Notes: generated by a model not told the origin, from the sequence alone. Shown: positions 5,101-25,677, counted from the stretch's first letter. The stretch: DNA of 64,000 nt from a bacterium (GCA_963643345.1 CAVIJK010000003.1:484-64483), one strand, 5' to 3'. Translations and numbers: made by a program.

Positions 5101-5234
5101 TCAACCTCGTCATGGAAGAAGAGGGAATCACCAACTTCGAAGGCTGGTATTTCTTCAAACCTCTTGAAATCGACGAATTCTTGGCGTTGCTCCGTAACTC
5201 CAGCGGCAAGTCATTCCTTGGAAACAAGAAATAA
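2169..5234 (+). CDS. Multidomain membrane c-di-GMP signalling protein with degenerate C-terminal EAL domain (1021 aa)
   Basis: Two N-terminal TM segments and a long sensory/degenerate region with a Cys cluster (KCHKAIYGLDTPCEDCP). The C-terminal EAL fold has EALLR and EFNE. DDFGxGY is replaced by DQFTGKY, KxD by KIA, EGVE by VGVE, and QG by EG. Confidence 0.8.
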   Translation: MNSTTQTKRSIQDELKIFKIILLSTLGASIVFTVALILVAVLTKLIALDIVLGVLSAACIATTMVFLILFLKKTKQNVFDPLFDVTTNNLEKITKNDYVLDNYGNSNFAEFDQLNDTVKRVNERYNTLIVTSTLSNFDEIGLTKDSAYDNKTITSESFFNNIPSLINVAKVFRNAFVSFVYETKENDLTHNDMSKLVDIIADVFSDNNPVICVDSANSIILFVPNIDSISILKEKLSYVQKKSIVARFSDRSTQVLPLKASAAIYPYSSMDSVITDLRYAERRGEDINIYLPDRSNDANSLSTDAKRINDSAEVMERLNAAFTKKGNVEAYRKDILDCATDLSEFLGFEGMSVIVYNEASGDAEQFYSHTVDPNRSFGVGYDAKEFLAELAKCADKDGSFAFFDRKDVTTPIGSYLDIYGVKSGYLALMYNNGAIYGALLFVNFDKKLVIDAQTMQAIVVFTNMFASSLKELYNRTAIEGANSRLESLLLYTNYQTYTVNKNNYTIVSSSRSIASIKEGEENVKCHKAIYGLDTPCEDCPLRTSKRKRVALDNKNYSYHTIISNKENRDNATFFLEPIDRRNIARERFDSETKLASSYMFAIRLCDKWNCNLKGNLVLINIANYHDLISAVGEPEINQYYRNVADALSSLKLTSDEIFQYNSSTIAIILNESTRNEVFRAIEMIEKAYETKIGNSIKDFKVEKSYRVFTYPLTFATSFDFIRSIETYFNSNNTDGDNNLHIVGTDIIRPASREDYILSLLNKAFVDKNFDLRIQPIVSKESGIISGGEALLRLKDELTNTFFDAGEFIPVAVKANSMNKFTNIFIEQIGRIYKMYGATVFRTGFLDKINLNVDSSYFKDPQFLDDLAKAFIEYNFQKGFITFEFNESDIADNKELIKESMHKIKELNITTVCDQFTGKYMTIEALSRLGFSEVKIARSLVMEMDTNPNRLNEIKSLLQLARTFNIKTTLVGVERREQVNLVMEEEGITNFEGWYFFKPLEIDEFLALLRNSSGKSFLGNKK

Positions 5235-8242: not shown

Positions 8243-8614
8243 ATGGAAAATTTATCTAAATCTAAAAAAATCATATACGGAGTGTTGTTTGGTCTTGATG
8301 TTGCACTAACGATATTCTTTCTTGTGGTTTCCATTGTGATGTTGGCAACAATGCCTTCATCGGCGGATGTAATGCTTGGCAATTACCAAAAGAATTTTAT
8401 TGGATGGTTTCAACAAAATCCAACATGGTTCTTAGTTATCGTTGTCATCCCTCTTATCCTTTTGTTCATCGTTAATATTGTTGTTCTTGTGAAATGCGTG
8501 AAATCAGGCAACACAAAAAAGAAAGTTGCTTTGAATGATCTCTCGGAAGAGGATAAGGCAAAACTTAGAGAGGCACTTATGAAAGACCTCTCTGGTGGAG
8601 ATAAGAAAGAGTAA
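8243..8614 (+). CDS. Small 2-TM membrane protein with charged C-terminal tail (123 aa)
   Basis: ORF with two hydrophobic helices, followed by a probable hairpin terminator at about 8607-8637. No motif recognised. Confidence 0.6.
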   Translation: MENLSKSKKIIYGVLFGLDVALTIFFLVVSIVMLATMPSSADVMLGNYQKNFIGWFQQNPTWFLVIVVIPLILLFIVNIVVLVKCVKSGNTKKKVALNDLSEEDKAKLREALMKDLSGGDKKE

Positions 8615-8670: not shown

Positions 8671-8699
8671 TTGCACTCGCGTATGCATAGGCGTATATT
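8671..8699 (+). promoter_or_regulatory. Sigma-A-type promoter of the TasA-like gene at 8839
   Basis: TTGCAC (8671-8676), 17-nt spacer, TATATT (8694-8699). The spacer again contains GCGTATGC (8679-8686). Confidence 0.5.
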
Positions 8700-8838
8700 A
8701 ATGTTGTCTCACTTCCGAAAGGATTATTGTCCAAGTGATTCTTAGGAGAGATAGACACTATCAATTAACAGCCAACCAGACTAGTGCAATAGCTGATAGG
8801 TTGTTCCATTCTTATCGCAAGAAAAGGAAATTAAAACA

Positions 8839-9759
8839 ATGAAAAAAACAAAAATCATTCTTCCTGCAATTGCTCTCTTAGCAGTTTCAGGCATCGCATC
8901 AGTCACAGGAACCGTTGCATGGTTCTCTGCAAATAGAGCAGCTACCGTTACTGCCAGCTTCACAGCTACTGATTCTGAAGGTAACTTACAAGTCTTAGCA
9001 AAGAAAGGCGTCGGTACTACAACAACTGCTACTGCAGCAAGTACAACTAGCGCTGTCACCGTTGATGGTGTTCTTACCCATGGCTCTTATAATGCAAAAG
9101 CTGATGGTTCTGGTGAATTATATGTTGCTAACATCAGTGAACATACTTCTACTGTTGATGGTGATACAGCCACTTATGAAGTTACAGGTTATACTTCTAA
9201 AGGTGCTATCACTGGTAACACTGGAACAACCATTACTCCATCCGCTTATCCATGGATGGCAGGTACCACAAATGATGATAATAAGATTTGGTACGCAGTT
9301 TCTTGGACCGTTGATATCAGCTTAGCTCAAAATGGAAACAAGGATTCTACCAAGATGGTCTTCGTAGATTTCAACAAGACCGCGTTCTCTGATGCTAATG
9401 ATGTTAACAATGGTTTCAGAGTTGCTTTAATGGATGGTGCTCATACCTACATTATCGGTAAAGATGATCAAAAGAATCACGTCACCGGCACGGCTAAGAC
9501 AGATGTTGCTGCTTGGTCTACTGAATATCATCAATTTGCTGAAAACTACACTGCAGTCCAAGATAACGCTTCCAAGGCCGCATCTGAAGTTGTTGAAAAA
9601 GGCTTCTTATTCGAATTAAGCGGAACAGAAGCTAAAACTCTTACCTGCGTTGCATGGTATGAAGGCGAAGACACCAATGTTGTCAGCAATACTAACAATA
9701 AATTCAATGCTTCTGGTCTTACTTTAAGTTTCTATTGCAGACAAACAACCTTAGCTTAA
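8839..9759 (+). CDS. TasA/camelysin-like secreted fibre subunit with SipW-type signal peptide (306 aa); candidate major subunit
   Basis: N-terminus MKKTKIILPAIALLAVSGIASVTGTVAWFSANRAATVTASF matches the SipW-cognate signal pattern (TM then GT.A.FS...ftA). The mature part is T/A/G/N-rich. The C-terminal two-strand motif TLTCVAWYEGEDTN...LTLSFY parallels TasA VQMEIQFKDD...IKLQFSF. The gene has its own promoter and terminator. Confidence 0.78.
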   Translation: MKKTKIILPAIALLAVSGIASVTGTVAWFSANRAATVTASFTATDSEGNLQVLAKKGVGTTTTATAASTTSAVTVDGVLTHGSYNAKADGSGELYVANISEHTSTVDGDTATYEVTGYTSKGAITGNTGTTITPSAYPWMAGTTNDDNKIWYAVSWTVDISLAQNGNKDSTKMVFVDFNKTAFSDANDVNNGFRVALMDGAHTYIIGKDDQKNHVTGTAKTDVAAWSTEYHQFAENYTAVQDNASKAASEVVEKGFLFELSGTEAKTLTCVAWYEGEDTNVVSNTNNKFNASGLTLSFYCRQTTLA

Positions 9760-9802
9760 GATCGATAATCTTTAAATCTAATTATTAACCTTTGAAAAAC
9801 TC

Positions 9803-9848
9803 AAGGAGCCACGAGAATGTCCAATCTTATGGCTCCTTATTTATTTAG
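9803..9848 (+). terminator. Intrinsic terminator after the 8839 gene
   Basis: AAGGAGCC..GGCTCCTT stem followed by ATTTATTT. Confidence 0.55.
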
Positions 9849-9904
9849 CTAATCCAATTCCGGTTTTTATAACTTTCTTTAAATTAAAGCCTGTACAATA
9901 TAAA

Positions 9905-10185
9905 GCCTATCAATAGGGACTCGTGCCGCAGAGAAGGCGTCCGGCCATATATTTTTTATGGAAACAGAAGGAGTGTGCCATGAACATTAAAAATGGTCCG
10001 GCGTGATGCGGTTCCTTCCGCATGACCCGCAGAAAAGAATCGCCGTAGCTGGCCGAATCAAAGGTAACGGGGGAAAGCCTGGAATGCACGATGCACAATA
10101 TCGGCGGGGTCCGATGCCTGAAACTGCTCAAAGGGTCCGTTCAACTCATAACTTACGCCATTTAATGATGGCGTTTTTCTTTTTG
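9905..10185 (+). ncRNA. Unassigned GC-rich structured RNA / leader with its own intrinsic terminator
   Basis: About 280 nt that is GC-rich relative to its flanks. Hairpins include GCC-GCAGAGAA-GGC and ATGCGG-TTCCTT-CCGCAT (10005-10022). An 8-codon mini-ORF (9980-10006, MNIKNGPA*) sits 6 nt after AAGGAG. A strong terminator ACGCCAT..ATGGCGT plus TTTTTCTTTTT lies at 10155-10185. Both long ORFs here look spurious. Confidence 0.4.
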
Positions 10186-10247
10186 CCTTTAGCCACCAGA
10201 TGTAGTATCGTAATGTTTAGCAGCTGCTTATTTATATAATAAATATG

Positions 10248-10275
10248 TTGCATTCAATCCTGGATTTGATATAGT
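10248..10275 (+). promoter_or_regulatory. Candidate sigma-A promoter for riboswitch 2
   Basis: TTGCAT (10248-10253), 16-nt spacer, TATAGT (10270-10275). Confidence 0.45.
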
Positions 10276-10279
10276 AATG

Positions 10280-10352
10280 CCTGTAAAGAGCAAAACTAGA
10301 GGAATCTAGTGACGCAAAGCTAAAGGGTCTACCTTAGATAGCCAGCTGCCAG
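10280..10352 (+). promoter_or_regulatory. c-di-GMP-I (GEMM-I) riboswitch aptamer, copy 2
   Basis: GAGCAAAA, CTAGA-GGAA-TCTAG, GACGCAAAGC, GGGTCTA..TAGATAGCCAGCTGCC. Same architecture and near-identical core as copy 1. Confidence 0.8.
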
Positions 10353-10400
10353 ACGATCACCACGATAATAATAGGTGTTTGATAGGCGGCTATTTTTATT
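10344..10400 (+). terminator. Candidate expression-platform terminator of riboswitch 2
   Basis: AGCTGCC (10344-10350, the aptamer 3' side) can pair with GGCGGCT (10385-10391), followed by ATTTTTATT. An inner hairpin CACC..GGTG is present. Confidence 0.35.
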
Positions 10401-10504
10401 GGATGAGACAGTCATTGGACGGGAAAACTGATTCTGATCGCATTGCACAGCGAAAAGGATTGAGTATCCGTATATTTTGGTTTTAAGAACATTAAACATA
10501 ATTC

Positions 10505-11344
10505 ATGGTTGATTTAGAATACGTAAAAAAACGAAAAAAGAAAAAGATAGCCACTTATGCTAGTTCAATTGCAACTATTGGACTGCTTGCTTTGATCATC
10601 ATTTCATTCTTAGGAAAGAAGATTGGTAATTTCACTATTGAAATGCAAAGACGCGGTACTGAACTTGCATTATCGACTGACAAATCTTTTGAAAGCCATA
10701 CGACCTTTTTGTCTATTGACGACATTCCGACGCATTCAGGCTATTACTACGATGATATGTTAAATAGATTTACTGACGATACAATCGACTCGGTTGAATC
10801 TAATGACAAATTATATTATGAGACTGATCGCGATGGGACAAAGACTGGCACCTTCTTCTTTAAGTATACTTTTTATCTCAAAAATCTTGGAACTGACGAT
10901 GCATTTTATTCCTCGTCGTTTGTAATTAAAGATATCGTTAGAGATGAGAATTTTAACTATGATTTATCCGACATTTTAAGAGTTCGCGTTTATAACAATG
11001 ATGCAGATTCAGACGAACACACAAATACAATCTACGCCAAACAAAACATCAGCTATACCCACATCGATGAAAACGGACAGGAATCGTATGATTCTCCTGT
11101 TTGCATTGATAGAGATACAGGTGAGGTTATTGGCGGCTATGCAACTTCATTTAAAAGTGATTCTATTGTGTGCGAAGATGAAAAGACCCCTATTAAAACG
11201 GGCGAATGCAGACGTATAACTTTAGTCATGTGGCTAGAACTTTCTGATGAGCAAGCCGTTGGCGATATGCCAAAAAATACAAGTATGAAGTTGGTGTATA
11301 ACCTAGAGGGCGCTCAATCATTCCAAAATCAAGATGAGGATTAA
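10505..11344 (+). CDS. Membrane-anchored TasA-like paralog (279 aa) lacking the AWF/AWY signal motif; candidate fibre anchor/nucleator
   Basis: K-rich N-terminus plus one TM (IATYASSIATIGLLALIIISFLG). The C-terminal motif RRITLVMWLELSDEQ...MKLVYNL is shared with the three neighbouring TasA-like proteins. The RBS is weak. Confidence 0.7.
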   Translation: MVDLEYVKKRKKKKIATYASSIATIGLLALIIISFLGKKIGNFTIEMQRRGTELALSTDKSFESHTTFLSIDDIPTHSGYYYDDMLNRFTDDTIDSVESNDKLYYETDRDGTKTGTFFFKYTFYLKNLGTDDAFYSSSFVIKDIVRDENFNYDLSDILRVRVYNNDADSDEHTNTIYAKQNISYTHIDENGQESYDSPVCIDRDTGEVIGGYATSFKSDSIVCEDEKTPIKTGECRRITLVMWLELSDEQAVGDMPKNTSMKLVYNLEGAQSFQNQDED

Positions 11345-11346
11345 TT

Positions 11347-12423
11347 GTGAAGAAAATTAACTTATTTCTCCCAACTTTAATTGCTACCGTTGCCTCGCTT
11401 TCTATAGCAAGTATCGGTGCTACCTACGCTTGGTATCAGTATCAAACTTTTGTTTCCATCAACCTCGGCGGAACATCAATTGATACAACCAAGTTATTTG
11501 AAATTGGTTTGGTTAGTGATGTGCAGCTTGATGTCGATAAGTATGGATTATCATATGAGAAAATTGGCGACAAGAATATCTATTGGGTTAATAGCGCCTC
11601 AACTGCCGGTGTTACGAATTATTATCTCGAAAGAAATGGTTATGGCACTGATCAATTAGAGGGAGTTACAAGCGGTAAATACACTACTGGTTCTTTGACT
11701 TCTGATGGAAAAGATGCTTTCTTCCTAAAAAAAGCACCTAACTCATTAGATAATTATTACCACCCTAATCCTGGTTATTACGACTACGCATCAAAACAAA
11801 ACTATCTACATTTTGATTTTGCGTTCCGATTAACAGAAAAATCTCCTGAAGGTTCTTCAATTGTTGAAAATATCGGTGTTAGACTTTCTAATTTCGATTT
11901 CGAATCTTCGGAAGGAGAGTTGGCTAATGCTGTTAGACTTCACTTCTGTGATGAGGATAACCCAGAGTCTTCATTTATCTACAATCCAAGCAGTGTTGAC
12001 GATGGACAAACAACAGTCGGCGGTGTCCTTGATTTAATCAATTCCGGCAACTACGACACCATTTATAGAAATGGCAGTCTTTATGAATATGCCTATGGCG
12101 AATACGAGACTCTTGTTTATAACGACGAAAAAACTACCGATGGTTCTGATGTCGATATATTTGACGCTGGCAATGGTAACAGTTTTGTTGCTAACCACTT
12201 AAATAATGCTTATGCGGTTAATCAAGAAGAGACTGTTTGGTCAACGTGCGATTACCTTGGTGCTAAGACGGTTATCTCTAAAGAAAGAAGAATCGCTTCT
12301 AGCGGTGCTGATGGTATTGCGTATTTTTCCATGGACATTTACCTTGAAGGGTGGTCGGAAGTATTCATCAATAAGGAAATGGATCACTACTTCAAATGCA
12401 ATATAGGGTTTGAAAGTATATGA
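11347..12423 (+). CDS. TasA/camelysin-like protein with SipW-type signal peptide (358 aa)
   Basis: GTG start 7 nt after GAGGA. N-terminus ...VASLSIASIGATYAWYQYQT. C-terminal motif YFSMDIYLEGWSE...FKCNIGF. Confidence 0.78.
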   Translation: MKKINLFLPTLIATVASLSIASIGATYAWYQYQTFVSINLGGTSIDTTKLFEIGLVSDVQLDVDKYGLSYEKIGDKNIYWVNSASTAGVTNYYLERNGYGTDQLEGVTSGKYTTGSLTSDGKDAFFLKKAPNSLDNYYHPNPGYYDYASKQNYLHFDFAFRLTEKSPEGSSIVENIGVRLSNFDFESSEGELANAVRLHFCDEDNPESSFIYNPSSVDDGQTTVGGVLDLINSGNYDTIYRNGSLYEYAYGEYETLVYNDEKTTDGSDVDIFDAGNGNSFVANHLNNAYAVNQEETVWSTCDYLGAKTVISKERRIASSGADGIAYFSMDIYLEGWSEVFINKEMDHYFKCNIGFESI

Positions 12424-13574
12424 ACTACAAGAAGATTATACCTATTGCCTTAGTTGCCATTTCTTGCTCATTACTTGCTTCTGTCGGCATGTCTGTAGCT
12501 TGGTATAGTAATGGTTCATATTTGCGTCTTTCTAACGTTGAAGTCTCATTGATGTCTGAGCCTGAATTAGGTTTAGGCCTGACATATAGTGACAATAAAA
12601 ACGATTACCATTTTGGTGAGTTTCCTTACGATGAACTCCCTAAGATGAAAAGTGGTTATTCGGATGTCTACGAAGAAGGACAAGAGTCTGATATCAACGG
12701 ATTTGTTCCGGTTTCGGCGATGTTTTCTAAGGAATGGATTGGCAAAAACGATGAAAACGGTTTAATTGATCCAATTTTCTATCAAAATTACAAACACGGA
12801 TTAATCATTGACACCAAGACATACCAAAAGACTTCTGCAGCAATCTCTGGATTCTATTCCGTACCGATGTATCTTTATTGCGATAGAGATATGTACGTCT
12901 CGATTGATAGTAAAACAACGGGATTTGCGGTTGACGAAAAGAAAAACCTTGAGACGGCCAAAGAGCTTCATGAAAAAGATGATAAGTACTCGGTTGATGA
13001 ATACGTTAAAGCCTTAGCGGGCGTTGTCAACTCTTTAAGATTCTCGATTTACGATTGCGAAACCTATAAATATTGGATAATTGACCCCTATAAAGGTGAT
13101 ACAACTACATATTATGGTGGCACTCTGGATTTAGATGGCAGCGGATCGTTCGATACATACTACGATTCCGACAATAAGATTTTCAAAGAATTCTTATTTG
13201 GAGAGTATCAAGACCCAGAGAATATTGTATATACGGATGAACCAATAGAAGATACGACAACCACATTTAACGCTTTCTCAGCTAACCATGTACAAGGTGC
13301 CCAAACTGTTGATATGGATTACTACTTATCCAACAACCTTATCGCTAAAGAAGAAAGCTATACACCGGAAGAACTATCAAAAGGAGATATGATTGCGATG
13401 AAAAATCATGTCCCACATAGAATTGTCTTATCTATTTACATCGAAGGATGGGATAGAGATAATACATCTGTATCGGCAATGGGATCGTTCTTCTCTTCGA
13501 TTAAGTTTAAACTTACAAGACAAAATTTTGATGCATCTGAGAATGATATTGCGAGCAGTTCTCAGAATGAATAA
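12420..13574 (+). CDS. TasA/camelysin-like protein with SipW-type signal peptide (384 aa)
   Basis: ATGA overlap with the upstream gene. N-terminus ...SLLASVGMSVAWYSNGS. C-terminal motif RIVLSIYIEGWDRDN...SIKFKL. Confidence 0.78.
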   Translation: MNYKKIIPIALVAISCSLLASVGMSVAWYSNGSYLRLSNVEVSLMSEPELGLGLTYSDNKNDYHFGEFPYDELPKMKSGYSDVYEEGQESDINGFVPVSAMFSKEWIGKNDENGLIDPIFYQNYKHGLIIDTKTYQKTSAAISGFYSVPMYLYCDRDMYVSIDSKTTGFAVDEKKNLETAKELHEKDDKYSVDEYVKALAGVVNSLRFSIYDCETYKYWIIDPYKGDTTTYYGGTLDLDGSGSFDTYYDSDNKIFKEFLFGEYQDPENIVYTDEPIEDTTTTFNAFSANHVQGAQTVDMDYYLSNNLIAKEESYTPEELSKGDMIAMKNHVPHRIVLSIYIEGWDRDNTSVSAMGSFFSSIKFKLTRQNFDASENDIASSSQNE

Positions 13575-13585
13575 AGGAGAAACCT

Positions 13586-15109
13586 ATGAGTGATTACTTT
13601 ACATACTTGTCAGAAGTAGTGGAAGCTTTCTGGAAAAACTTCTGCACCTTCATGTATGACACATTTGTCACACCTTGGTCAAAGGTTGGTGGCAATTTCC
13701 AACACTACCACACAATCTTCTACACTTACTATCAGAGTTTCGGATTTTGGGGTTGGTTTTTCTTCATTTTATTCGCACTTTTGTTACTCGCAGCAGTAGG
13801 CGGTTTGGTATTTCTTATTGTTATAGGCCTTAGAAAATATGTTAAGTTCTACAGGAAAGAACTTGATAAAGATGCTCTTAGAGAACAGGTAGATAGACTC
13901 AATTATGAACTCTATCAAGCCGTTGCAGAGAAAGATAGAATTCTTGGACTGCAAGTTAATGCGCTTGGCTTAAAGAACCCAGAATTAGATAAGAAGAATG
14001 CTCAGGATGTCGTTGATGAAGTTTCATCAAGATTCCCTAAACTTACATGGGTTGACCATCAATATGCGGATTTCGACGCAACAATTCCTGATATCCCAGA
14101 TTTCACATTGGAGGAATTGTGCAATAGATTTAGATTATTCGCGGCCTCTCAGTTACATCTTTATTATACAGTAGATACAATTAGACAACTGTTTGCAGGT
14201 ATGGCTACCTCCAAATTGATGATTCTTGAAGGTATTTCCGGTACAGGTAAAACTTCCATGGCGTATGCTTTGGGTAAATTCTTCCAATACGACGCGAATA
14301 TCTGCTCGGTTCAGCCTTCTTGGAAAGATAGATCAGAACTTATCGGTTACTACAACGAATTCACCAAGAAATTCAATGAAACCGAATTCTTACGTGCTTT
14401 ATATACAGCAACATACCGTAAAGATATCAACATCATCGTCCTCGATGAAATGAACTTGGCACGTATCGAATACTACTTCGCAGAATTCTTATCCGTCATG
14501 GAAATGCCTAACATCAATGAATGGAACATTGAATTAATCAACACCTATTCAAATGATGATCCTAAGAACGTCCATAACGGCAAAATGTTAATCCCTCAGA
14601 ATGTTCAGTTCTTCGGTACCGCTAACAACGATGACTCCACATTCACAATCTCAGATAAGGTCTATGACCGTGCTATATCCTTATTCTTTGATAATAAAGG
14701 TATTGCCTTTGATGCTGAATTCACTGATCCAGTCAAATTATCATATGATCAATTCCATCAATTATGCATTAATGCATGGAATGACTATCCAATATCTGAT
14801 GCAATTTTAGATAAATTCGGTGAGCTTGATAACTTTGTTATCGCTAAATTCAAACTTGCGTTTGGTAACCGTATTTTGAAACAGATGAAATCATTTGTTC
14901 CAGCCTATGTTGCGTGCGGTGGCACTGAAATCGACGCAGTCGACTTCATCTTCACCAACAAGATTCTCAAGAAGTTCGAGTCATTGAATGTCGCATTCTT
15001 GAGAGACGAATTGGGCGAACTCAACCTTAAACTTGATGAATTATTTGGTGAAGGTACATTCAAGATGGCCCACAAATACATCAATAACTTGCTGAAGATG
15101 TCAGCTTAA
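13586..15109 (+). CDS. Membrane-anchored McrB-like AAA+ (AAA_5 / COG1401-type) NTPase (507 aa)
   Basis: One TM (FWGWFFFILFALLLLAAVGGLVFLIVIGL) followed by a coiled coil. Walker A is GISGTGKTS and Walker B is IIVLDEMNLARIEYYFAEFLSVME. FFGTANNDDSTFTISDKVYDRA matches the McrB-family pattern GT.N.D..T...S.KV.DRA. A strong RBS (AAAGGAG) precedes the start. Confidence 0.82.
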   Translation: MSDYFTYLSEVVEAFWKNFCTFMYDTFVTPWSKVGGNFQHYHTIFYTYYQSFGFWGWFFFILFALLLLAAVGGLVFLIVIGLRKYVKFYRKELDKDALREQVDRLNYELYQAVAEKDRILGLQVNALGLKNPELDKKNAQDVVDEVSSRFPKLTWVDHQYADFDATIPDIPDFTLEELCNRFRLFAASQLHLYYTVDTIRQLFAGMATSKLMILEGISGTGKTSMAYALGKFFQYDANICSVQPSWKDRSELIGYYNEFTKKFNETEFLRALYTATYRKDINIIVLDEMNLARIEYYFAEFLSVMEMPNINEWNIELINTYSNDDPKNVHNGKMLIPQNVQFFGTANNDDSTFTISDKVYDRAISLFFDNKGIAFDAEFTDPVKLSYDQFHQLCINAWNDYPISDAILDKFGELDNFVIAKFKLAFGNRILKQMKSFVPAYVACGGTEIDAVDFIFTNKILKKFESLNVAFLRDELGELNLKLDELFGEGTFKMAHKYINNLLKMSA

Positions 15110-15128
15110 TTAATCTACAAATCGTTTT

Positions 15129-18100: not shown

Positions 18101-21100
18101 CGCTGATTTAACAATGAAGTTAGAGGCCATCTCTAATGTCAGCGACGATGACACAATCATTTGGGTATCATCTGATGAATCTGTTGCAACGGTTGATAAT
18201 AACGGCATAGTTACTGGCGTTAAAGAAGGAGACGCAACAATCAGCGCTTCATCTTCTAAAGAACCAGAATTGTTCCAAGAATTCACTTTACATATCACTC
18301 CAGCAATCGCAGTCACGTTAAGCGGTTCAAATGTTGCCCTCACAACGAAGACCATTGCTACTTCAGTTGAGGTTTTGAATGCTGAAGATTATTCAGTTAC
18401 ATATAAATCATCCGACGAAAATATCGCTACAGTTGATGAAAACGGCGTTGTCACAACGCTATCAGCTGGCGTTGTAATGATTAGCGCAACCAGCGTTCAG
18501 GACCCTACAAAGAACAGCGAAATCGAAATTACTATCAGAGATGGTATCGAACTTTCGACACCAGTTGTTGCTATTCGCGCCGGAAAGACAACGGTTTGGA
18601 GTGCAATCTCAAATGTTGCTGAAGATGACGTAATCGTTTGGTCAACAGACGATGAATCTATTGCAACAGTTGATAGTAACGGCACAATCACTGGCGTCAG
18701 CGATGGCAAGGCTACAATTTATGCAACCTCCTCAACTGACGACACGCTTTATGCAACCGGCGTTATTGAAATTAGATCCGATATCGCAATCGAAATCGAT
18801 GGACCAGCTAAAATCATCAAGTCTAGAACGGCTAAGTATGAGGCAATTTTGTTAAATGCCGATAATTCTGCGGTTATTTGGTCAACATCTGATGACGGCA
18901 TCATCACAATCGATGAAAATGGCGTTGCTACCGCACTTCAAGTAGGCGATGCCGATATAATGGTACAAAGCGCTGAAGATAGCGAGAAGACATCTTCAAT
19001 CCGTATCAGCGTCAAGGAAGGCGTTGAATTGAATTATGTAGAAACATCGCTTATTTCTAACAAGACGACATTGACGCTAAATGCAATCACAAACGTCTCT
19101 GATGATGACACAATCGTCTGGACTTCATCTAACGACAGTATTGCAACTGTTGATAATGGTGTCGTCACCGGAATCGATAAACTTGGTGGAGATGTGGTTA
19201 TTAGAGCGTCTTCATCTAACGATCCAGAACTATATAAAGAAGTCAATATCCATGTAGAACCTATGCCAATTGTTGGCATTAATATCATCGGTTCTAATAG
19301 AGCAATCCCTGGCAAGGCAATTCAGTTGGCGGCAGAGGTTGAACGTGCAGATGATCCAAGCGTCGTCTGGACAACATCCGATGAGAACATCGCAACGGTT
19401 GACGAGAATGGCTTAGTCACTCCGATCGCTGTAGGCAAAGTTCTGATCTCGGCTACATCGGTTGAACAGAACGATAAATGCGCAACATTTGAAGTCAATG
19501 TCTATGAAGGCATTGTCTTTGATACATATAAGGAATCACTTGTCGTTGGCAAACCTGAGCAATTCGGAGCCATGTCTAATGTTTCAGAGGATGATGTAGT
19601 TGCCTATTCATCATCCGATGAGAATATCGCAACGGTTGACGAGAAAGGCGTTGTAACCGGAATTAATGCTGGAACTGTTACGATTACTGCTTCCTCCAAA
19701 ACCGATTCAACATTCTTTGTTGATCGCGAAATAAGCGTTAAACCTGACGTTTCTATCGAAATTGTTGGTCAAAATAATTATGTCATTGGACAGAAAGTTC
19801 AGCTTACTGCCAATGTCTTGCACGCAATAGACACAAGCGCTACTTGGTCATCAAGTAACGAATTCGTCGCTAAAGTCGATTCCGAAGGATTGCTTACGGT
19901 TCTTGCGGCAGGCACAACCGTTATTTCAGCTAGATCCGTAGAGGATATGAGAAAACTCGCCACGCTTGAAATCACCGTCATTGATGGAATCGCGTTCCTT
20001 GATGATTGTGATGAAGTGTTCATCGGCAAGAGCGTCGAACTCTCCGCTAAGAGTAACCTCGAGAATGACTCAATCATTTGGTCGTCATCGGATGAGGCAA
20101 TCGCCACAATCGATGAGAACGGACTTCTAACCGGAACAGGACTTGGTGAGGTCACCATTAAGGCAACCTCAACCACAGATGAGAATGTTTATAGTGAACG
20201 CAAGATAGATGTTGTGCCAAGAGCTCCAATCGAAGTTGAAGTTTATGGTACAGATAGACTTTTCGTCGGCAAAGATTCGCAATTCAGCGTATATGTCACT
20301 AACGCAGATGACCCTTCGGTCACTTGGGGCTCGTCTAGTGAGGATGTTGCAACAGTATCCTCGGATGGACTTGTACACGGCGTATCCGCAGGAGATGTCA
20401 CGATTCTTGTCACATCAATTGAGGATCCAACAAAGTCGGCATCCCTTACTTTAACAATATCCGACGGTCTCACGCTCGAAGCTGATGAGATTGAGGTCAT
20501 TGCAAAGGATGATGTTGTTTGGAGCGCAATATCAAGTGTTGCTCCAGATGACACAGTCACTTGGACATCAAGCGATGAAACAATCGCAACGGTTAGAGAA
20601 GGCATGATTACCGGTGTAACTGAGGGCGTTACAACAATAACAGCAACATCCAACACCGACCCTGCTATCTCTATTTCTAAAGAAATCACGGTCCTTCCTA
20701 GACCTGCAACAATTCTTACAATCGGTGAACTTTCTTCAGTGGTCATGGATGGCAATGCAACGATTCCATTTACCATTGAAAACGCTAAAGATAAAACCGT
20801 CAGATGGACGTCCTCTGATGAATCCGTAATACGTGTTGATGATGCCGGAACATTAACCGGCGTTGCCATTGGAAGCGCTGAAATCACTGTCACATCAGTC
20901 GAGGATCCTACAAAATCAGCAACTACAAGTGTGGCATGTATTGAAAAGGTCATTGTCACGTCTGAGGAAGATACCTTTAGAGTTAAGGAAACCATCGCAC
21001 TCACGGGCGTCTCTAATTTAGGAGATGAAGATACGCTTGTTTGGACAACTTCTGATGTCAATATCGCTACAGTTTCTCCAAATGGAGAGGTGTTAGGCAT

Positions 21101-21872
21101 TGGAGAAGGGGAAGCAATAATTACTGCGACCTCAACTTTAGATCCAACGGCTTCCGCTTCTAAGACGGTAACAGTGCTTCCTAAACTGAATATCATCTTC
21201 ACAACTTCAACTCCTGCGACAAATATCACCGCAGGAAAACAGTTCACTATCTCAACCCATATTGAGAATGCTAAAGATGAGAGCCTCACTTGGACAACAA
21301 CTGATGAGAAGGTTGCAACAGTTGAGAACGGGCTTGTCACTGGCGTATCTAGAGGCAACGCAACAATCACTGCATCAGTCAATGAAGACCCGGATAAGAC
21401 TATAACGGTCAACGTTTCAGTCAAAGGCGGCATCATCATCGCTCCTGGTGTCCGCGAGGTTAAGGTTGGACAAACCCTTATACTTTCCGCAAAATCAACC
21501 GTCGGTATTGGCGATAAGATCGTTTGGGAAACAAGCGATGAGGAAATCGCCTTCATGACGGGCGAGGTTGTCTGCCCAGTGAAACCAGGCGTAATTACTG
21601 TAACTGCAACATCGAGTATCAATTCGTTGGTACATTCCTCGGTTGAGGTCACAGTGCATGAGAAGACCTACACCCTTAAGAAGACTGTTGTTAAGAGCGA
21701 TAGAGTCCTTACGCTTGATGACATCAAGACCAATAAACAAGGACGCGTTGTCTCGACCTTCAAGAGAGAGACAATCGTTGAAGAACTCGTCGAGGACGAT
21801 GGCATCACCGTTGTTGATGGTACAAAAGCCTCTAGCCTCAAGGATGAAGAGGCAAAAGACGAGAATAAATAA
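15129..21872 (+). CDS. Giant 2247-aa protein: K/E-rich N-terminus, tentative McrC/DUF2357-like helical domain, coiled coil, 19 tandem Big_2 Ig-like repeats; no signal peptide or TM
   Basis: Single uninterrupted ORF. ITYENRFVATVIRRLVLFIEKRY and NIIRKNPKYHKVYNLYRFMEMY recall McrC-N/DUF2357 motifs (from memory, tentative). An E/K/R coiled coil spans about aa 560-640. Nineteen repeats then carry the core W.SS[DN]E.[IV]ATVD.NG.VTG..G.A.I.A.S. Confidence 0.88.
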   Translation: MQKKKKIENLNNSTATRNGADSSLSGAHTGTGKGTKKSKVSRKELEKLSRKPKTAKEEKVSLSEEGFLEIAKELKPQKEDIFDAGKIEFGEDKVLKEEADESPVDTPIDENASDIARLAELALQDEKRVEEQEAEAEKERIEKEEQAKVLKEEQERLAEEQEEIDREAADDTPKSDRVPPKEVPSPETITKKDEDLFDYDSKNKILENVIKSAVLEDEDLDRLSKLLGNGNSVHTLRLSRHETGSFDMAWVKAVEDAIPAIDEILKNPRINTKVVTDIVPVELAKKTGSESVKHLASHTQYVKDIDENGNVIPSKILNIGSDDEYITYENRFVATVIRRLVLFIEKRYDFIVKYSELKDYDILYIKNHSDVNGLAVDVESKVVVSRPSGKGAADGEDNASLMKRINLMRRYAKFFYSSDFMKRFKNEKNVRAPIMQTNIIRKNPKYHKVYNLYRFMEMYRALGVEFTVKEDYYLPEQADLDTINNLTVANFLAARAKPSEKDKVSKVEVKNPEVLTTVDDDIFTFFPTGEYPEYVRVDEEYLRWKERNTKDLKEDPNELEKAYRGNDYLRKAKAEKERARREALKARREKERQEFLEEQERLKAEKEAERIRQEKLAKEREEAKALVELEAAREAVRQAAREEDEDLLLAIVTPVEITITGDTEIVAKTTYAQLESTVEFYIADPSLVWSSSNEEIATVDQTGYVSGWKEGDVVIRATSVEDPSCYTDYEMHVYPRPPITVSFPTIDKILVTKEATLTPVVRNADDLSVIWHSSNEAVATVIDGVVHAYSAGNVVITAFSSEDPTKSHSICIHPLDGIELSGESHSIVSRRTTLQLNAFSNVSADDMILFFSSDENIATVDQNGHVEGVSWDGGEVEIKVISTVDPTISNTYKVTVLPKPIVSVTLEGDSRVFLSRPNQLIGTVINAMVNDVTWTSSDESVATVVDGVVTGVSIGSATITCRSNEETDKFATLDIEVKEAIIIAEHKDSLIADLTMKLEAISNVSDDDTIIWVSSDESVATVDNNGIVTGVKEGDATISASSSKEPELFQEFTLHITPAIAVTLSGSNVALTTKTIATSVEVLNAEDYSVTYKSSDENIATVDENGVVTTLSAGVVMISATSVQDPTKNSEIEITIRDGIELSTPVVAIRAGKTTVWSAISNVAEDDVIVWSTDDESIATVDSNGTITGVSDGKATIYATSSTDDTLYATGVIEIRSDIAIEIDGPAKIIKSRTAKYEAILLNADNSAVIWSTSDDGIITIDENGVATALQVGDADIMVQSAEDSEKTSSIRISVKEGVELNYVETSLISNKTTLTLNAITNVSDDDTIVWTSSNDSIATVDNGVVTGIDKLGGDVVIRASSSNDPELYKEVNIHVEPMPIVGINIIGSNRAIPGKAIQLAAEVERADDPSVVWTTSDENIATVDENGLVTPIAVGKVLISATSVEQNDKCATFEVNVYEGIVFDTYKESLVVGKPEQFGAMSNVSEDDVVAYSSSDENIATVDEKGVVTGINAGTVTITASSKTDSTFFVDREISVKPDVSIEIVGQNNYVIGQKVQLTANVLHAIDTSATWSSSNEFVAKVDSEGLLTVLAAGTTVISARSVEDMRKLATLEITVIDGIAFLDDCDEVFIGKSVELSAKSNLENDSIIWSSSDEAIATIDENGLLTGTGLGEVTIKATSTTDENVYSERKIDVVPRAPIEVEVYGTDRLFVGKDSQFSVYVTNADDPSVTWGSSSEDVATVSSDGLVHGVSAGDVTILVTSIEDPTKSASLTLTISDGLTLEADEIEVIAKDDVVWSAISSVAPDDTVTWTSSDETIATVREGMITGVTEGVTTITATSNTDPAISISKEITVLPRPATILTIGELSSVVMDGNATIPFTIENAKDKTVRWTSSDESVIRVDDAGTLTGVAIGSAEITVTSVEDPTKSATTSVACIEKVIVTSEEDTFRVKETIALTGVSNLGDEDTLVWTTSDVNIATVSPNGEVLGIGEGEAIITATSTLDPTASASKTVTVLPKLNIIFTTSTPATNITAGKQFTISTHIENAKDESLTWTTTDEKVATVENGLVTGVSRGNATITASVNEDPDKTITVNVSVKGGIIIAPGVREVKVGQTLILSAKSTVGIGDKIVWETSDEEIAFMTGEVVCPVKPGVITVTATSSINSLVHSSVEVTVHEKTYTLKKTVVKSDRVLTLDDIKTNKQGRVVSTFKRETIVEELVEDDGITVVDGTKASSLKDEEAKDENK
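17085..21660 (+). repeat. Coding tandem array of 19 Big_2-type repeats (about 240-270 nt each) alternating between two subtypes
   Basis: Repeat cores were counted in the translation. Near-identical DNA 20-mers recur, for example ATCGCAACGGTTGACGAGAA at 19389-19408 and 19626-19645. Confidence 0.85.
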
Positions 21873-21893
21873 TATTTAATAAGAGGATTAATA

Positions 21894-22667
21894 ATGGCAG
21901 AAGAAAAAGAAGCGAAAAAACCTCTATGGAGGAGAATAACCGATTGGGTCATGACGGGAATCGTTGTGGTTTTAGTCGGCTTCTTTGCTGCCTTTATGAT
22001 CAATGGACAGGTAACTAAGAATAAGAATTACGGAGTTAACATGTTCCTGGGAACCGCAACACTCGTAGTTCAGACTGATTCCATGGAACCTTTATATCCT
22101 GTAGGTTCCGCCATATTCGTCAAGGATACTGAGCCATCTGATATCAAAATAGACGATGATGTCACATTCTATTATCAGTCTTGGGGATTGGTGGTAACTC
22201 ATCGAGTCTCTAATATTGAATATAGACAGGATGAAGGAAAATATTACTTCACGGTTCATGGCATCAACACCGATTCTGAACAGTGCGCAGGAACAAATGG
22301 CGGTCAAAGAGACTGCACAGATCAAACCCAAACGTTTTCAGAGGATTACCTCATCGGAAGGGTTTCAGGGAAATCCGTGGCCTTTGGCAAGATTTATAAG
22401 TTCTTCACGACGATTTGGGGTTTGATAATTCTTCTAGCCATCCCAGCCACTTATTTAATCACCACTAGCGTAATCGATATTGTCAAAGCCGTGAAAAGCG
22501 ATGAAGATGACATGACATCTAAACCATCGGGTGAAGCTAGCGGGATGGAAGGGCTGAGTCCTGAAGACATCGCAAGATTAAAAGAGGAGATGCTCAACGA
22601 AATGATTGAGCAAAAACAGCAAGAGCTCTTGAATAAAGAGGGAAAGGAAGTCAAGAAAGATGAATAA
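21894..22667 (+). CDS. sipW: SipW-type (archaeal/ER-like, S26B) signal peptidase I with C-terminal TM and acidic tail (257 aa)
   Basis: N-terminal TM, catalytic Ser in VVQTDSMEP and His in VVTHRV, as in B. subtilis SipW (SGSMEP / THR). A second TM and an E/K-rich tail follow. Confidence 0.82.
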   Translation: MAEEKEAKKPLWRRITDWVMTGIVVVLVGFFAAFMINGQVTKNKNYGVNMFLGTATLVVQTDSMEPLYPVGSAIFVKDTEPSDIKIDDDVTFYYQSWGLVVTHRVSNIEYRQDEGKYYFTVHGINTDSEQCAGTNGGQRDCTDQTQTFSEDYLIGRVSGKSVAFGKIYKFFTTIWGLIILLAIPATYLITTSVIDIVKAVKSDEDDMTSKPSGEASGMEGLSPEDIARLKEEMLNEMIEQKQQELLNKEGKEVKKDE

Positions 22668-24195
22668 AAGAGCAAAAATATTAATTTCCTTAGCAGCGAC
22701 ATCCGTCGCGCTTGGCATCGCAATCGCCATATTGTTCCCAATTTTGATTTTCGGGAATGATTCAATCGGATTGAACCCAACAAGCAACACCATATTCGTT
22801 GTTGCGCTCGTTGTTTGCGTTTCTTTTTCGACCATCTTCATTGCTGTCACTGTAAGGGAAATCCAAAACGAGAACGGTTCGTTAAACGAGAACTTGTATA
22901 ACTTAGGTAAGAGAATCTCTTTCTACAACTTGGATACCTTCACAAAAGCCGTATCTGTCGTATATAAGAGAAAAGCGGATAAGAGCTATGTCATTTCTTA
23001 TTCCCCTATTAAAACCGATATCATCTATGAATCGTTCCAGGCGGACCAGGTCAGAACTTTTTATGGTTTAATCGCCGATAAGTTCATCGCTTATTTCTCC
23101 GTTCCAGAGATGGTTAAGGCTAGAGCCTCATACTGCTTCGATAAGAATTCGTTCTTCATCTATTTTGTAGGCGATGAAAATCTTCTTAACCAAATCACTA
23201 ACGATTTCGAGGCGATGACATTCGATCTCGCTAAAGAGAATGACATCCGTTTATTTGTTCAGCCATATTTCGGAATTGTCAAAGGAAGCAAAGAAATCTC
23301 GGTTTTCCAGGCGATTGATAACGCGTCTGCTGCCCGTAAGAGCGGTGAATCCAAGTACATTTCAAAGAGCTATTACAGCGAAAAGAAAGATAACACATCG
23401 TTTGAGAATGAGCTCGACAAGATTCTCGATGCTTTAAAGAACGACGAATTCATCGTTTACTATCAGCCAAAATTCAACCTTGCCCATAAGCAATTCGTCG
23501 GACTTGAAGCTCTTGTGAGATGGAATTCGCCTGAACACGGACTTGTCTCACCTGCTAAGTTCATTGACTTCGCAGAAAACTCCAATATCATTCATGAACT
23601 TGATATTTATATCTTAGATAAGGTTTGCAGGGATATCGCAGACTGGAAGAGAAGAGGAAAGAAGATTCTTCCTGTTTCTGTAAACTTCTCGGTCTATGAG
23701 TTATTCATCCCAACCTTTATTTCAGATGTTGAGAAGACAATCGAGAACTATGGCGTTAACCCAATGCTTATCGAAGCAGAAGTTACCGAAACCGTCAGAT
23801 TCAATATCTCATCATCGCTTTACATTCAGTCCGTCCTCAGAAAGATTAGAGAAATGGGTATCAAGATTCTTCTTGATGACTTCGGTTCCCACGCCTCATC
23901 ATTCAACACGTTAAAGGAACTCCCTATCGACATTATCAAGATCGATAAGTCATTGGTCGATGGAATTGCGGTGGATTATAAATCGAAGGAAATAGTCAAG
24001 GCGGTCATCACGATGGCTAAGACTATGAACCTCGGCATCATCGCTGAAGGCGTTGATAAGGAAGAACAGGTTAAGATTCTCTCTGAATCAAGATGTGACG
24101 AAATCCAGGGATACTATTACAGTAAGCCAATCCCTAAGAAAGACTTAGAGAAATTCCTCTCAGTCAACCCATTCGAGAGCAAGGAGGTCTTGTAA
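22660..24195 (+). CDS. Membrane EAL-domain c-di-GMP phosphodiesterase with degenerate GGDEF-like domain (511 aa)
   Basis: Two N-terminal TM segments. EAL motifs are EALVRW, SVNFS, EVTE, DDFGSHASS, KIDKS, AEGVD and QGYYY. An 8-nt overlap with sipW suggests translational coupling. Confidence 0.85.
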   Translation: MNKRAKILISLAATSVALGIAIAILFPILIFGNDSIGLNPTSNTIFVVALVVCVSFSTIFIAVTVREIQNENGSLNENLYNLGKRISFYNLDTFTKAVSVVYKRKADKSYVISYSPIKTDIIYESFQADQVRTFYGLIADKFIAYFSVPEMVKARASYCFDKNSFFIYFVGDENLLNQITNDFEAMTFDLAKENDIRLFVQPYFGIVKGSKEISVFQAIDNASAARKSGESKYISKSYYSEKKDNTSFENELDKILDALKNDEFIVYYQPKFNLAHKQFVGLEALVRWNSPEHGLVSPAKFIDFAENSNIIHELDIYILDKVCRDIADWKRRGKKILPVSVNFSVYELFIPTFISDVEKTIENYGVNPMLIEAEVTETVRFNISSSLYIQSVLRKIREMGIKILLDDFGSHASSFNTLKELPIDIIKIDKSLVDGIAVDYKSKEIVKAVITMAKTMNLGIIAEGVDKEEQVKILSESRCDEIQGYYYSKPIPKKDLEKFLSVNPFESKEVL

Positions 24196-24196
24196 T

Positions 24197-24934
24197 ATGA
24201 TTCTTATTATCGGATCAACATATGATGACGTTATTTATTTCGATTCCAAATTGAGAAATAAGACGGAAGAAAAGTCTTTTGGCACAGTCAAGGTTTTCTC
24301 AGGAGACGCGTTCTCACAACGTGTAGTTGTGGCATATGGCGCTTCAACTAGTTACATGATGTCCGCCGCAACAAGCTATTTGGCGGATAAGTATTCGGTC
24401 ATCTTGGTCATCAACGTTGGCAAATGTTTCTCATATAGCGATTCGCTCAAAGTCGGAGATGTTGTCATCTCTGAATCGATTCACATTTGCGATGTAGACC
24501 AAAGGGCAATTGAACCCCGTGTCAAAGTTGGGCAGATTCCTGGAATGCCAGAATACTTCAATGTTTCCAATTATTTAATCAATCTCACTCTTACAACCGC
24601 TGAAAAGCTGTCATTAATCGACGTTAAAGGAGTGACATTCTTCTCTAGCGACGTCATCTATAACAACGCGGAGCAGATAAAGGACATCACATCCGGACAA
24701 TATGTCTTAGGAGTTTCAAAGAACGTTGTCTTTGACTCTGAAAGTGGGGCTATCGCGGTTGCGACCCATTTGGTTGACGTACCATCCCTCTGTATCAAAG
24801 TCGTTGCATCACCATTCACGGAGAAAGTCGGCACTTCCAATCTAGTGGATGTCATGCATGCATATGCACGAGTCGGAAGGCTTATCGTCGCGTTGATTGG
24901 CGAAATCTCAAGAAACGACACAATCGCTGCATAA
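24197..24934 (+). CDS. PNP/UDP-phosphorylase-fold protein, MTA/SAH-nucleosidase (Pfs)-like but divergent (245 aa)
   Basis: MILIIGSTYDDV and INVGKC..GDVVIS resemble the MtnN layout (MKIGIIGAMEEEV / GsAGg..vGDvv). The usual GIGK and SD.AD motifs were not seen. Confidence 0.5.
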   Translation: MILIIGSTYDDVIYFDSKLRNKTEEKSFGTVKVFSGDAFSQRVVVAYGASTSYMMSAATSYLADKYSVILVINVGKCFSYSDSLKVGDVVISESIHICDVDQRAIEPRVKVGQIPGMPEYFNVSNYLINLTLTTAEKLSLIDVKGVTFFSSDVIYNNAEQIKDITSGQYVLGVSKNVVFDSESGAIAVATHLVDVPSLCIKVVASPFTEKVGTSNLVDVMHAYARVGRLIVALIGEISRNDTIAA

Positions 24935-24935
24935 A

Positions 24936-25469
24936 ATGGATAAAGTAGAAAAACAACTTAGCCATGATCAAGTGTTCGACGGAACGCTTCTTCATGTCTA
25001 TAAAGACAAAGTGCTTTGTCCAAATGGGAACGAATCGACCCGCGAATACATAATGCATCAAGGCGCATCAGCTGTGCTCGCTTTCCTTCCTGATGGCAAA
25101 ATCATCATGGAGAAGCAGTTCAGATACCCATTTCACAAAGATGTGTATGAGGTACCCGCCGGAAAGCTAGACCCAAATGAATCTAGCGAAATCTGTGCAA
25201 TCCGCGAACTTGAGGAAGAAACGGGATGGCACGCAAACACGATTGAATATTATGGTGCGGTATACCCTTCTATTGCCTACACAAATGAAGTGATTCATCT
25301 ATACGTTGCAAAAGATTTGGTCAAAACCAAACAGCATCTGGATAAAGATGAGACTCTTGAAGTCCTCTATATGAATCTGGATGATGTGGTGGAGATGATT
25401 AAAAACGATGAAATTAGGGATTCTAAGACCATTGCGATAATCTCAAGATACGTCCTCAAAAACAATTAA
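24936..25469 (+). CDS. Nudix hydrolase, ADP-ribose pyrophosphatase-like
   Basis: Nudix box GKLDPNESSEICAIRELEEETG. I use the ATG at 24936; the track's 24897 start is a TTG inside the previous gene. Confidence 0.8.
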   Translation: MDKVEKQLSHDQVFDGTLLHVYKDKVLCPNGNESTREYIMHQGASAVLAFLPDGKIIMEKQFRYPFHKDVYEVPAGKLDPNESSEICAIRELEEETGWHANTIEYYGAVYPSIAYTNEVIHLYVAKDLVKTKQHLDKDETLEVLYMNLDDVVEMIKNDEIRDSKTIAIISRYVLKNN

Positions 25470-25480
25470 GACAGAACAAT

Positions 25481-25514
25481 GCCACCGATTTATTAACGGT
25501 GGCGTTTTTCTTTT
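25481..25514 (+). terminator. Intrinsic terminator ending the 10.5-25.5 kb gene string
   Basis: GCCACCG..CGGTGGC stem followed by GTTTTTCTTTT. Confidence 0.75.
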
Positions 25515-25649: not shown

Positions 25650-25677
25650 AAAAAAAGAGATGGACGAATCCATCTCT
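25650..25677 (-). terminator. Intrinsic terminator of eno
   Basis: AGAGATGGA..TCCATCTCT stem with a T-run on the minus strand. Confidence 0.7.

Follow-up and report, generated by a model that had tools for sequence, protein, structure and literature searches.

A CoCoPALM-type operon of gut Bacilli linking a c-di-GMP riboswitch, a membrane-anchored McrB-like GTPase and candidate fibre subunits

Among the closest described systems is CoCoPALM, a large clade of CoCoNuT-like NxD GTPases fused to an FtsB-homologous transmembrane (TM) and coiled-coil domain. In the accessible text of Bell, Makarova, Koonin and colleagues (eLife 2024, PMC11090510), the class is named in two sentences and read as pilus-linked, and its details are deferred to a later paper. 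The text-form supplements of the CoCoNuT paper do not mention CoCoPALM, and a literature search found no follow-up paper. Searches for TasA-like proteins with a riboswitch for cyclic di-GMP (c-di-GMP), or for McrB-like proteins with a pilus, returned nothing beyond Bell et al. Here, we describe a locus at positions 8671-25514 of a 64,000-nucleotide (nt) stretch of bacterial DNA (GCA_963643345.1 CAVIJK010000003.1:484-64483). The whole stretch is called the window (G+C content, 40%), and all coordinates follow its numbering. In this locus, a c-di-GMP riboswitch precedes a string of genes for exported proteins, a membrane-anchored McrB-like GTPase with a partner protein, a signal peptidase, an EAL-domain phosphodiesterase and a nucleosidase-like protein. 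A first-pass annotation of this DNA knew of no such described system; in fact, the combination was already named CoCoPALM in 2024.

The GTPase of the window resembles the CoCoPALM proteins in its NxD motif and in its N-terminus, which consists of a TM segment and a heptad-rich helix. In addition, a DUF2357 McrC homolog with long helices is encoded next to it, a signal-peptidase-family protein is present, and there is no evident nuclease. Because the NxD GTPase, the McrC homolog and the signal peptidase occur together, and because the nearest plasmid-borne relatives of the GTPase lie in CoCoNuT-like neighbourhoods, we assign the window system to CoCoPALM. It belongs to a named, uncharacterised class; it is not categorically new, and by homology it is not a TasA system. 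However, the published FtsB homology was not reproduced for the window GTPase: similarity to FtsB/DivIC was not detected by Pfam in 18 GTPase members or by hhalign against E. coli FtsB (0.2%). Furthermore, several features of the locus are not in the accessible CoCoPALM text, namely a near-universal c-di-GMP-I ON riboswitch, co-conserved EAL and nucleosidase-like genes, a four-member A-W-[F/Y] family of exported proteins, a small protein with two TM segments (2-TM), and a partner variant with 19 immunoglobulin-like (Ig) domains.

To compare the locus across species, 85 loci were fetched. The order gene A, T1, T2, GTPase, partner, peptidase, EAL, PNP_UDP_1 (PNP) is essentially invariant in them, and it recurs in about 80 independent species loci, so the arrangement is far beyond chance. 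The GTPase was matched in at least 593 species-representative genomes and has more than 8000 database relatives (protein clusters). Nearly all of the genomes that carry it are from uncultured gut or rumen Bacilli (Candidatus Onthovivens, Ca. Enterosoma, Ca. Enteromonas and metagenome-assembled genomes labelled 'Erysipelotrichaceae'). The co-conservation of the gene set is thus very strong, and the operon is real and kept across hundreds of uncultured gut Bacilli. Its features in the window are as follows (ORF, open reading frame; aa, amino acids; AF2, AlphaFold2).

8243-8614, plus strand: small 2-TM membrane protein, 123 aa, an accessory gene kept in relatives (BLASTP homologs, TM prediction)
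8839-9759, plus strand: T0, monocistronic exported protein, 306 aa, with the invariant GT-x-AWF signal motif (ORF)
9796-9841, plus strand: hairpin and T-rich run 3' of T0, probable terminator (read off the sequence)
10279-10353, plus strand: c-di-GMP-I (GEMM-I) riboswitch aptamer (Rfam RF01051)
10344-10397, plus strand: predicted expression-platform terminator, whose 5' arm AGCUGCC is the aptamer 3' strand (RNAfold)
10505-11344, plus strand: gene A, TM-anchored paralog, 279 aa, without AW[FY] (ORF, TM segment aa 19-37)
11347-12423, plus strand: T1, exported paralog, 358 aa, signal motif GAT-Y-AWY (family alignment)
12420-13574, plus strand: T2, exported paralog, 384 aa, signal motif SV-AWY (family alignment, AF2 model)
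13586-15109, plus strand: membrane-anchored McrB-like GTPase of the NxD clade, 507 aa (AAA_5, E. coli McrB match)
15129-21872, plus strand: partner protein, 2247 aa, with a DUF2357/McrC-N-like core and 19 Big_2 repeats (ortholog Pfam matches, AF2, self-search)
21894-22667, plus strand: 257-aa signal peptidase I of the SipW/ER/archaeal type, ending in a TM segment and a charged tail (TIGR02228)
22660-24195, plus strand: membrane EAL-domain c-di-GMP phosphodiesterase, 511 aa (PF00563)
24197-24934, plus strand: PNP_UDP_1 protein resembling methylthioadenosine/S-adenosylhomocysteine (MTA/SAH) nucleosidases, 245 aa (PF01048)
24936-25469, plus strand: Nudix hydrolase, co-oriented, outside the conserved set (PF00293)
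25656-25677: bidirectional terminator-like hairpin that ends the string, before the convergent enolase gene (sequence, enolase identified)

The ORF coordinates and the tight same-strand string from 10505 to 25469 were as the first-pass annotation had given them. The junctions from gene A to PNP are +2, -4, +11, +19, +21, -8 and +1 nt, and, taking ATG 24936 as the Nudix start codon, the PNP-Nudix junction is +1 nt as well. Homologs of gene A were found in 57 loci and the partner core in 68. The EAL and PNP_UDP_1 genes are retained at the same positions in nearly all loci, and a peptidase homolog lies 3' of the partner gene in most sufficiently long loci (BLASTP missed four). T0 homologs were found by BLASTP upstream in 14 other fetched loci, sometimes in two copies. 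Seven loci (L023, L025, L026, L029, L036, L040, L043) have 2-3 kb of extra sequence between A and T1. Some of these inserts hold extra T1-like paralogs (L029 at 5981, 509 aa; L043 at 5219, 707 aa), so the number of subunit genes differs among species. Meanwhile, the Nudix gene had been counted as a member of the system. No Nudix ortholog was found in any of the 85 loci, and we rejected it.

Compared with the Bacillus biofilm fibre operons tapA-sipW-tasA and, in B. cereus, sipW-tasA-calY, the locus likewise encodes a dedicated ER/archaeal-type peptidase beside several paralogous exported proteins, the signals end in Ala with an aromatic residue at P2', and A, comparable to TapA, looks like an anchor or accessory protein. 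However, the window subunits have no detectable TasA/Peptidase_M73 homology, the peptidase is not the SipW equivalog, and the NTPase pair and the riboswitch control are absent from the Bacillus operons. As in the type IV restriction systems McrBC and CoCoNuT (CnuB/CnuC), the gene of an AAA+ GTPase, whose product has Walker A, Walker B and Nx(x)D motifs, precedes that of a DUF2357 activator. Unlike them, the locus encodes neither a DNA- or RNA-binding domain nor a nuclease (PD-(D/E)xK, HEPN or other), its GTPase is membrane-anchored, and its neighbours belong to secretion and c-di-GMP signalling, not to methyltransferases or defence islands. In addition, the DNA-binding domain of canonical McrBC is replaced at the N-terminus of the GTPase by a TM segment and helix. 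Type IV pili and type II secretion follow the same logic: the subunits start with a hydrophobic helix, a peptidase is dedicated to them, and a hexameric NTPase is associated with the membrane. However, there are no homologous parts, and the window locus has no class III signal and no PilB/PilC-type protein, its peptidase being of the Ser/His type I. An ON control of pili by a c-di-GMP riboswitch is known from pilA1 of Clostridioides difficile.

The GEMM-I riboswitch that had been noted before the string was confirmed by Rfam (59.8 bits against a gathering score of 35, E 3.6e-9). A hairpin at 10344-10392 (-18.3 kcal/mol, RNAfold), followed by U5, shares its 5' arm with the 3' strand of the aptamer. 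The bound aptamer and the terminator would therefore be mutually exclusive, which predicts an ON switch. This predicted structure fits the earlier proposal that the operon is switched on at high c-di-GMP, and we regard the riboswitch as a likely ON switch for the operon. To scan the loci upstream of gene A, we built a covariance model from ten aptamers. A c-di-GMP-I aptamer was found immediately 5' of gene A in about 51 of the 53 loci having enough upstream sequence. The overlap design, in which a loop separates an arm such as GCCAGUUGCC from GGCAACUGGC and a U run comes last, was flagged in 24 of 49 loci, and several loci show compensatory stem differences between species. In L023 and L025 a near-identical hairpin was flagged, but it is positioned 3' of the aptamer; insertions in the aptamer may account for this offset.

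Other c-di-GMP elements were also observed. A second c-di-GMP-I riboswitch (2012-2087, 61.1 bits) lies 5' of a GGDEF-EAL gene (2169-5234), and another GGDEF-EAL gene (5273-7699) comes next. Thus, c-di-GMP turnover beside the operon is itself riboswitch-controlled. In related loci, a GGDEF-EAL gene is often next after the conserved set. Many of them hold additional c-di-GMP-I copies, and L055 has one c-di-GMP-I-GGC variant.

T0, A, T1 and T2 form one family of paralogs. T1 and T2 are paralogs (hhalign 99.9%, E 1.7e-37), and T0 matches the T2 family over the signal and the mature N-terminus (hhalign 96.6%). A shares with them a C-terminal W-[LF]-E-G-x-D module (hhalign 92.8% with T2 and 88.5% with T0). 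The T2 profile has 1594 representatives of 50% clusters at E <= 1e-3, and the T0 homologs are very divergent save for the N-terminus and the C-terminal WFEGxD motif. Directly after the hydrophobic core of the signal, T0, T1 and T2 all have Ala-Trp-[Phe/Tyr], a motif that is invariant or nearly so; in the T1 family alignment W29 is invariant and A28 near-invariant. AW[FY] is absent from the gene A product, which is a candidate for an uncleaved anchor or base subunit, judging from its sequence. T0 is a candidate major subunit. The AF2 model of T2 (predicted local distance difference test score, pLDDT, 82; predicted template modelling score, pTM, 0.79) consists of an N-terminal helix, a low-confidence linker at aa 20-37 and a beta-rich body. 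In this model, the low-confidence segment after the signal is as expected for a strand that would need a partner.

The four exported proteins had been labelled 'TasA-like', and we could not support this label in any test that was run (Pfam, NCBIfam, PDB profiles, hhalign, Foldseek). None of the four matched Peptidase_M73 (PF12389) or the TasA family in Pfam or NCBIfam at E <= 10, and TIGR04088 was found neither in 37 T1-family members at this threshold nor in the window proteins. The T1 and T2 family profiles gave only noise against PDB sequences and did not find TasA (8aur, 5of1). By hhalign, the T0 and T2 profiles scored 0.35% and 0.68% against TasA (sequence verified against 8aur). A Foldseek search of the PDB with the T2 model gave no match at E <= 0.001 (best E 0.2), and TasA was outside the best 50. 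The donor-strand pilins CfaB, AbpA and CanA were among the matches only at E 0.7-2.2, that is, at noise level (CfaB 4y2l, E 0.74; archaeal bundling pilin 7ueg, E 1.1; CanA 9dlo, E 2.2). Because every homology test failed, the TasA label was dropped and the four proteins were treated as a new family. This corrects an unsupported annotation, since the exported proteins are not detectably TasA. Nevertheless, the signal end shows a parallel by eye between G-T-x-A-W-[F/Y] and the G-T-W-A-A-F of TasA, with an aromatic residue at P2'. In the accessible text of a study of TasA, Phe at P2' makes it a SipW-specific substrate (PMC10269814). Judging from the motif, cleavage after Ala would leave an aromatic P2' residue in T0, T1 and T2 as well.

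The SipW-type peptidase named by the first-pass annotation was recovered with TIGR02228 (54.7 bits, cutoff 51.85), and it reaches only 51.8 of the 190 bits required for the Bacillus SipW equivalog. Ser63 (TDSMEP) and His103 (THR) are invariant in 45 peptidase sequences. Because this ER/archaeal-type Ser/His dyad is invariant, the peptidase is predicted to be active. The EAL, Pfs-like and Nudix proteins are also present as described (PF00563, E 6e-68; PF01048, E 6e-14; PF00293, E 8e-18). Two or three TM segments were predicted in the EAL protein, whose EAL, DDFG and QGY motifs are intact, and the PNP_UDP_1 protein scores 66 bits with TIGR01704, below the cutoff of 73.8. About 50 loci have a homolog of the small 2-TM protein, in most cases encoded between T0 and the riboswitch. 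The C-terminal half of this protein is similar to the C-terminal TM segment and charged tail of the operon peptidases (BLASTP E about 3e-7 to 1e-2), which suggests a duplicated peptidase tail module.

The McrB-like AAA+ protein with a TM segment was confirmed as well. It matches AAA_5 (E 1.8e-5), and E. coli McrB gave its sole PDB sequence matches (E 1.5e-5, about 27 bits). It begins with 50 conserved, aromatic-rich residues. A single strong TM segment (aa 61-79) comes next, then very basic sequence and, at about aa 88-135, a heptad-rich helix. Because the strongly basic stretch follows the TM segment, the AAA+ domain should be cytoplasmic by the positive-inside rule. Across 18 diverse orthologs, Walker A (GISGTGKTS), Walker B (VLDEMN) and GTANNDD do not vary, and the mean column identity is 74%. 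In tblastn searches against plasmids, proteins with 31-37% identity (E down to 1e-53) were found in Deinococcus, Polaromonas, Nostoc and Rhodoferax. The alignment pairs GTANNDD of the window with GTAN(H/T)DE of the Polaromonas and Nostoc relatives and with GLMNTAD of E. coli McrB. According to the accessible part of Bell et al. 2024 (PMC11090510), E or another D usually comes directly after the NxD motif. Thus, the window GTPase fits the NxD clade. The closest homologs on plasmids of cultured organisms are AAA proteins of about 800 aa on Polaromonas pPNAP01 (136826-139267, L086) and Nostoc NIES-25 plasmid2 (107407-109797, L087). Both neighbourhoods hold VWA and Ser/Thr kinase genes, and that of Polaromonas also a PP2C phosphatase gene. 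These two proteins are read as CnuB-like because their neighbours resemble extended Type III-A CoCoNuT operons.

The partner protein has a charged N-terminus, a conserved core at aa ~200-640 and then Ig-like repeats. The McrC-N-like domain that had been proposed tentatively gained indirect support, as DUF2357 matched 15 of 45 orthologous cores (best E 2.6e-8; several at 26-35 bits against a gathering score of 23.3), but the window protein itself has no Pfam match. The AF2 model of the core, from the 45-sequence alignment (pLDDT 78, pTM 0.49), predicts a helical bundle, a long beta-hairpin (core residues 159-188) and, following the domain, a helix of 75 residues. No PD-(D/E)xK-like fold was predicted in it, no nuclease was found by Pfam, NCBIfam or PADLOC, and the invariant columns of the partner contain no D...(D/E)xK. 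A PDB sequence profile search with the core gave only noise.

The count of 19 Big_2 repeats held: Pfam found 17 Big_2 stretches, and an iterative self-search found exactly 19 Ig-like repeats (aa 648-2171, nt 17070-21641). However, the Ig-repeat stalk is not the central part that it had been taken for. The ortholog partners range from 450 to 2331 aa, their C-terminal tails are mostly none or disordered and acidic, and Big_2 arrays occur only in the window, L007 and L008. The tail-less orthologs and this restriction led us to reject the array as a core feature. Other tails (L022:4764-7187, L044:11557-15060, L071:6556-11346, L055:11652-15578) consist of Pro/Glu/Lys-rich repeats, acidic Glu/Ala/Gly stretches, or 800-1150 residues without a known domain. 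Judging from these sequences, the tails seem to evolve like surface-exposed regions, though the protein is predicted to be cytoplasmic. The export of the giant protein, which the first-pass annotation had supposed, is pure conjecture because neither the window partner nor any partner examined has a signal peptide or TM segment.

From the observed parts, order, conservation, motifs and riboswitch, we infer a system in which the exported proteins are cleaved and polymerised and the GTPase is coupled to them. At high c-di-GMP, the aptamer would sequester the 5' arm of the terminator and allow read-through into the operon. The peptidase would cut T0, T1 and T2 after the invariant Ala, and the mature products would assemble into a surface fibre or pilus-like appendage, with T0 as its abundant and rapidly evolving major subunit, T1 and T2 as minor subunits, and the uncleaved A as membrane anchor. 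The GTPase would form a hexamer, tethered to the cytoplasmic face of the membrane through its TM segment and coiled-coil neck, and the finger domain of the partner would activate it, as McrC does McrB. Such a hexamer could be the energy-coupling platform for assembly or anchoring; this would parallel the hexameric ATPase of type IV pili, although the parts are unrelated. Finally, the EAL protein would lower c-di-GMP, and because its gene is co-conserved with the operon, this negative feedback is plausible. We give this reading as a whole, a riboswitch-gated fibre with a GTPase-partner energy platform, a probability of roughly 0.55. It keeps from the first interpretation the riboswitch-gated operon, the peptidase with its probable substrates, the membrane McrB-like NTPase, the nuclease-less partner and the EAL protein, and drops the TasA homology, the Ig stalk, the Nudix hydrolase and the novelty.

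Several points weigh against this reading. The CoCoPALM class is experimentally uncharacterised, the McrB relatives of known function act on nucleic acids, and an action of the GTPase on exported proteins is conjectural. The T proteins have no detectable relation to TasA, camelysin or solved pilins. Thus, only context argues for fibre formation. Meanwhile, a Foldseek search of the PDB with the partner core model found no significant match and did not retrieve McrC; the long helices in this model probably hampered the search. Thus, Pfam matches carry the McrC-N assignment. In addition, this reading gives no role to the hypervariable partner tail or to the conserved nucleosidase-like gene.

The surface-like, hypervariable tails of the partner (Big_2 arrays, Pro/Glu/Lys-rich or acidic low complexity) and the constant adjacency and co-conservation of the GTPase-partner pair would also suit an export and anchoring device driven by nucleoside triphosphates (NTPs) for a stalk or adhesin. 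In this sharpened form of the first-pass proposal, the McrB-like ring would grip the DUF2357 head and thread the tail, here 19 Ig domains, to the outside for display, with the T proteins as an accessory matrix. We consider this extrusion unlikely. Besides the missing signal peptide and TM segment, some orthologs are essentially tail-less (450 aa in L013), so the tail cannot be the core function. In addition, six single TM helices are unlikely to make a protein conduit, and the accessible accounts of McrBC structures describe McrC as a plug of the pore that is not itself translocated (PMC6624300, PMC7680126). A conflict or defence system akin to type IV restriction, in which a membrane sensor GTPase triggers an envelope response to phage, appears less likely still. 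It would agree with the CoCoNuT-like neighbourhoods of the nearest plasmid-borne relatives (VWA, kinase and phosphatase genes), with the match of the GTPase to the PADLOC defence-candidate model PDC-M26A (135.8 bits), and with the pairing of DUF2357 and McrB, typically found in defence modules according to the part of Bell et al. available to us (PMC11090510). However, no nuclease, HEPN or nucleic-acid-binding domain was found in the operon by Pfam, NCBIfam or PADLOC. The fixed synteny across the clade and the wide, well-conserved occurrence of the GTPase differ from defence islands, which are usually patchy, and control by a c-di-GMP ON switch together with a feedback EAL gene typically goes with a surface or lifestyle function.

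Two other explanations seem about as improbable as defence. The TM segment and coiled-coil neck could put the GTPase at the divisome, where the exported proteins would remodel the cell surface or the septum; an example would be cells that chain or aggregate when c-di-GMP is high. Such a role in the envelope or division would accord with the FtsB homology of the N-terminal domain in the accessible report of Bell et al. (PMC11090510), and the clade-wide conservation is as for a housekeeping system; but the similarity to FtsB/DivIC was not detectable here, and riboswitch gating favours a conditional over an essential function. Alternatively, the peptidase with its substrates and the GTPase with its partner might be two unrelated modules merely on one transcript. 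No direct evidence of an interaction between them argues otherwise; yet in every locus the substrate genes and the peptidase gene flank those of the GTPase and partner, the junctions overlap or nearly abut, and the association was found independently in what we could access of Bell et al. (PMC11090510).

Within the preferred reading of a riboswitch-gated fibre, a more specific proposal is tentative: a McrBC-derived pair may have been exapted from nucleic-acid restriction as a membrane motor for the assembly, anchoring or tensioning of a previously unrecognised, c-di-GMP-switched fibre class of gut Bacilli, whose subunits would be a new family matured by the signal peptidase. If this motor exists, it would be a third, non-homologous solution to NTP-powered pilus biogenesis, and some lineages might also display the hypervariable tail of the activator, such as the 19-Ig tail. 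If the function that we propose is correct, AAA+ GTPases of a lineage so far seen only in restriction and defence would perform mechanical work at the envelope, in a large and uncultured clade of Bacilli from animal guts. In any case, the locus supplies a parts list for CoCoPALM: an ON riboswitch that reports the inducing signal, a peptidase with the predicted site A|W-[F/Y], a probable fibre subunit family and a feedback phosphodiesterase.

Between the probable T0 terminator, whose hairpin has a weak match on the opposite strand, and the riboswitch lies an insert of about 280 nt (9900-10175, 51% G+C) with its own terminator at 10155-10174. The insert had no Rfam match, a fold z-score of -1.66 and no second copy in the window or the loci, and it is absent from the closest relative, L008. 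In addition, ten of the fetched loci (L009, L020, L040, L042, L046, L052, L054, L061, L065, L081) are Bacilli operon contigs in wrongly named bins, with the labels Lachnospiraceae, Paludibacteraceae, Bacteroides uniformis, Gammaproteobacteria, Hallerella, Sodaliphilus, Prevotella and Escherichia coli. These mismatched labels almost certainly reflect mis-binning or mislabelling of public records.

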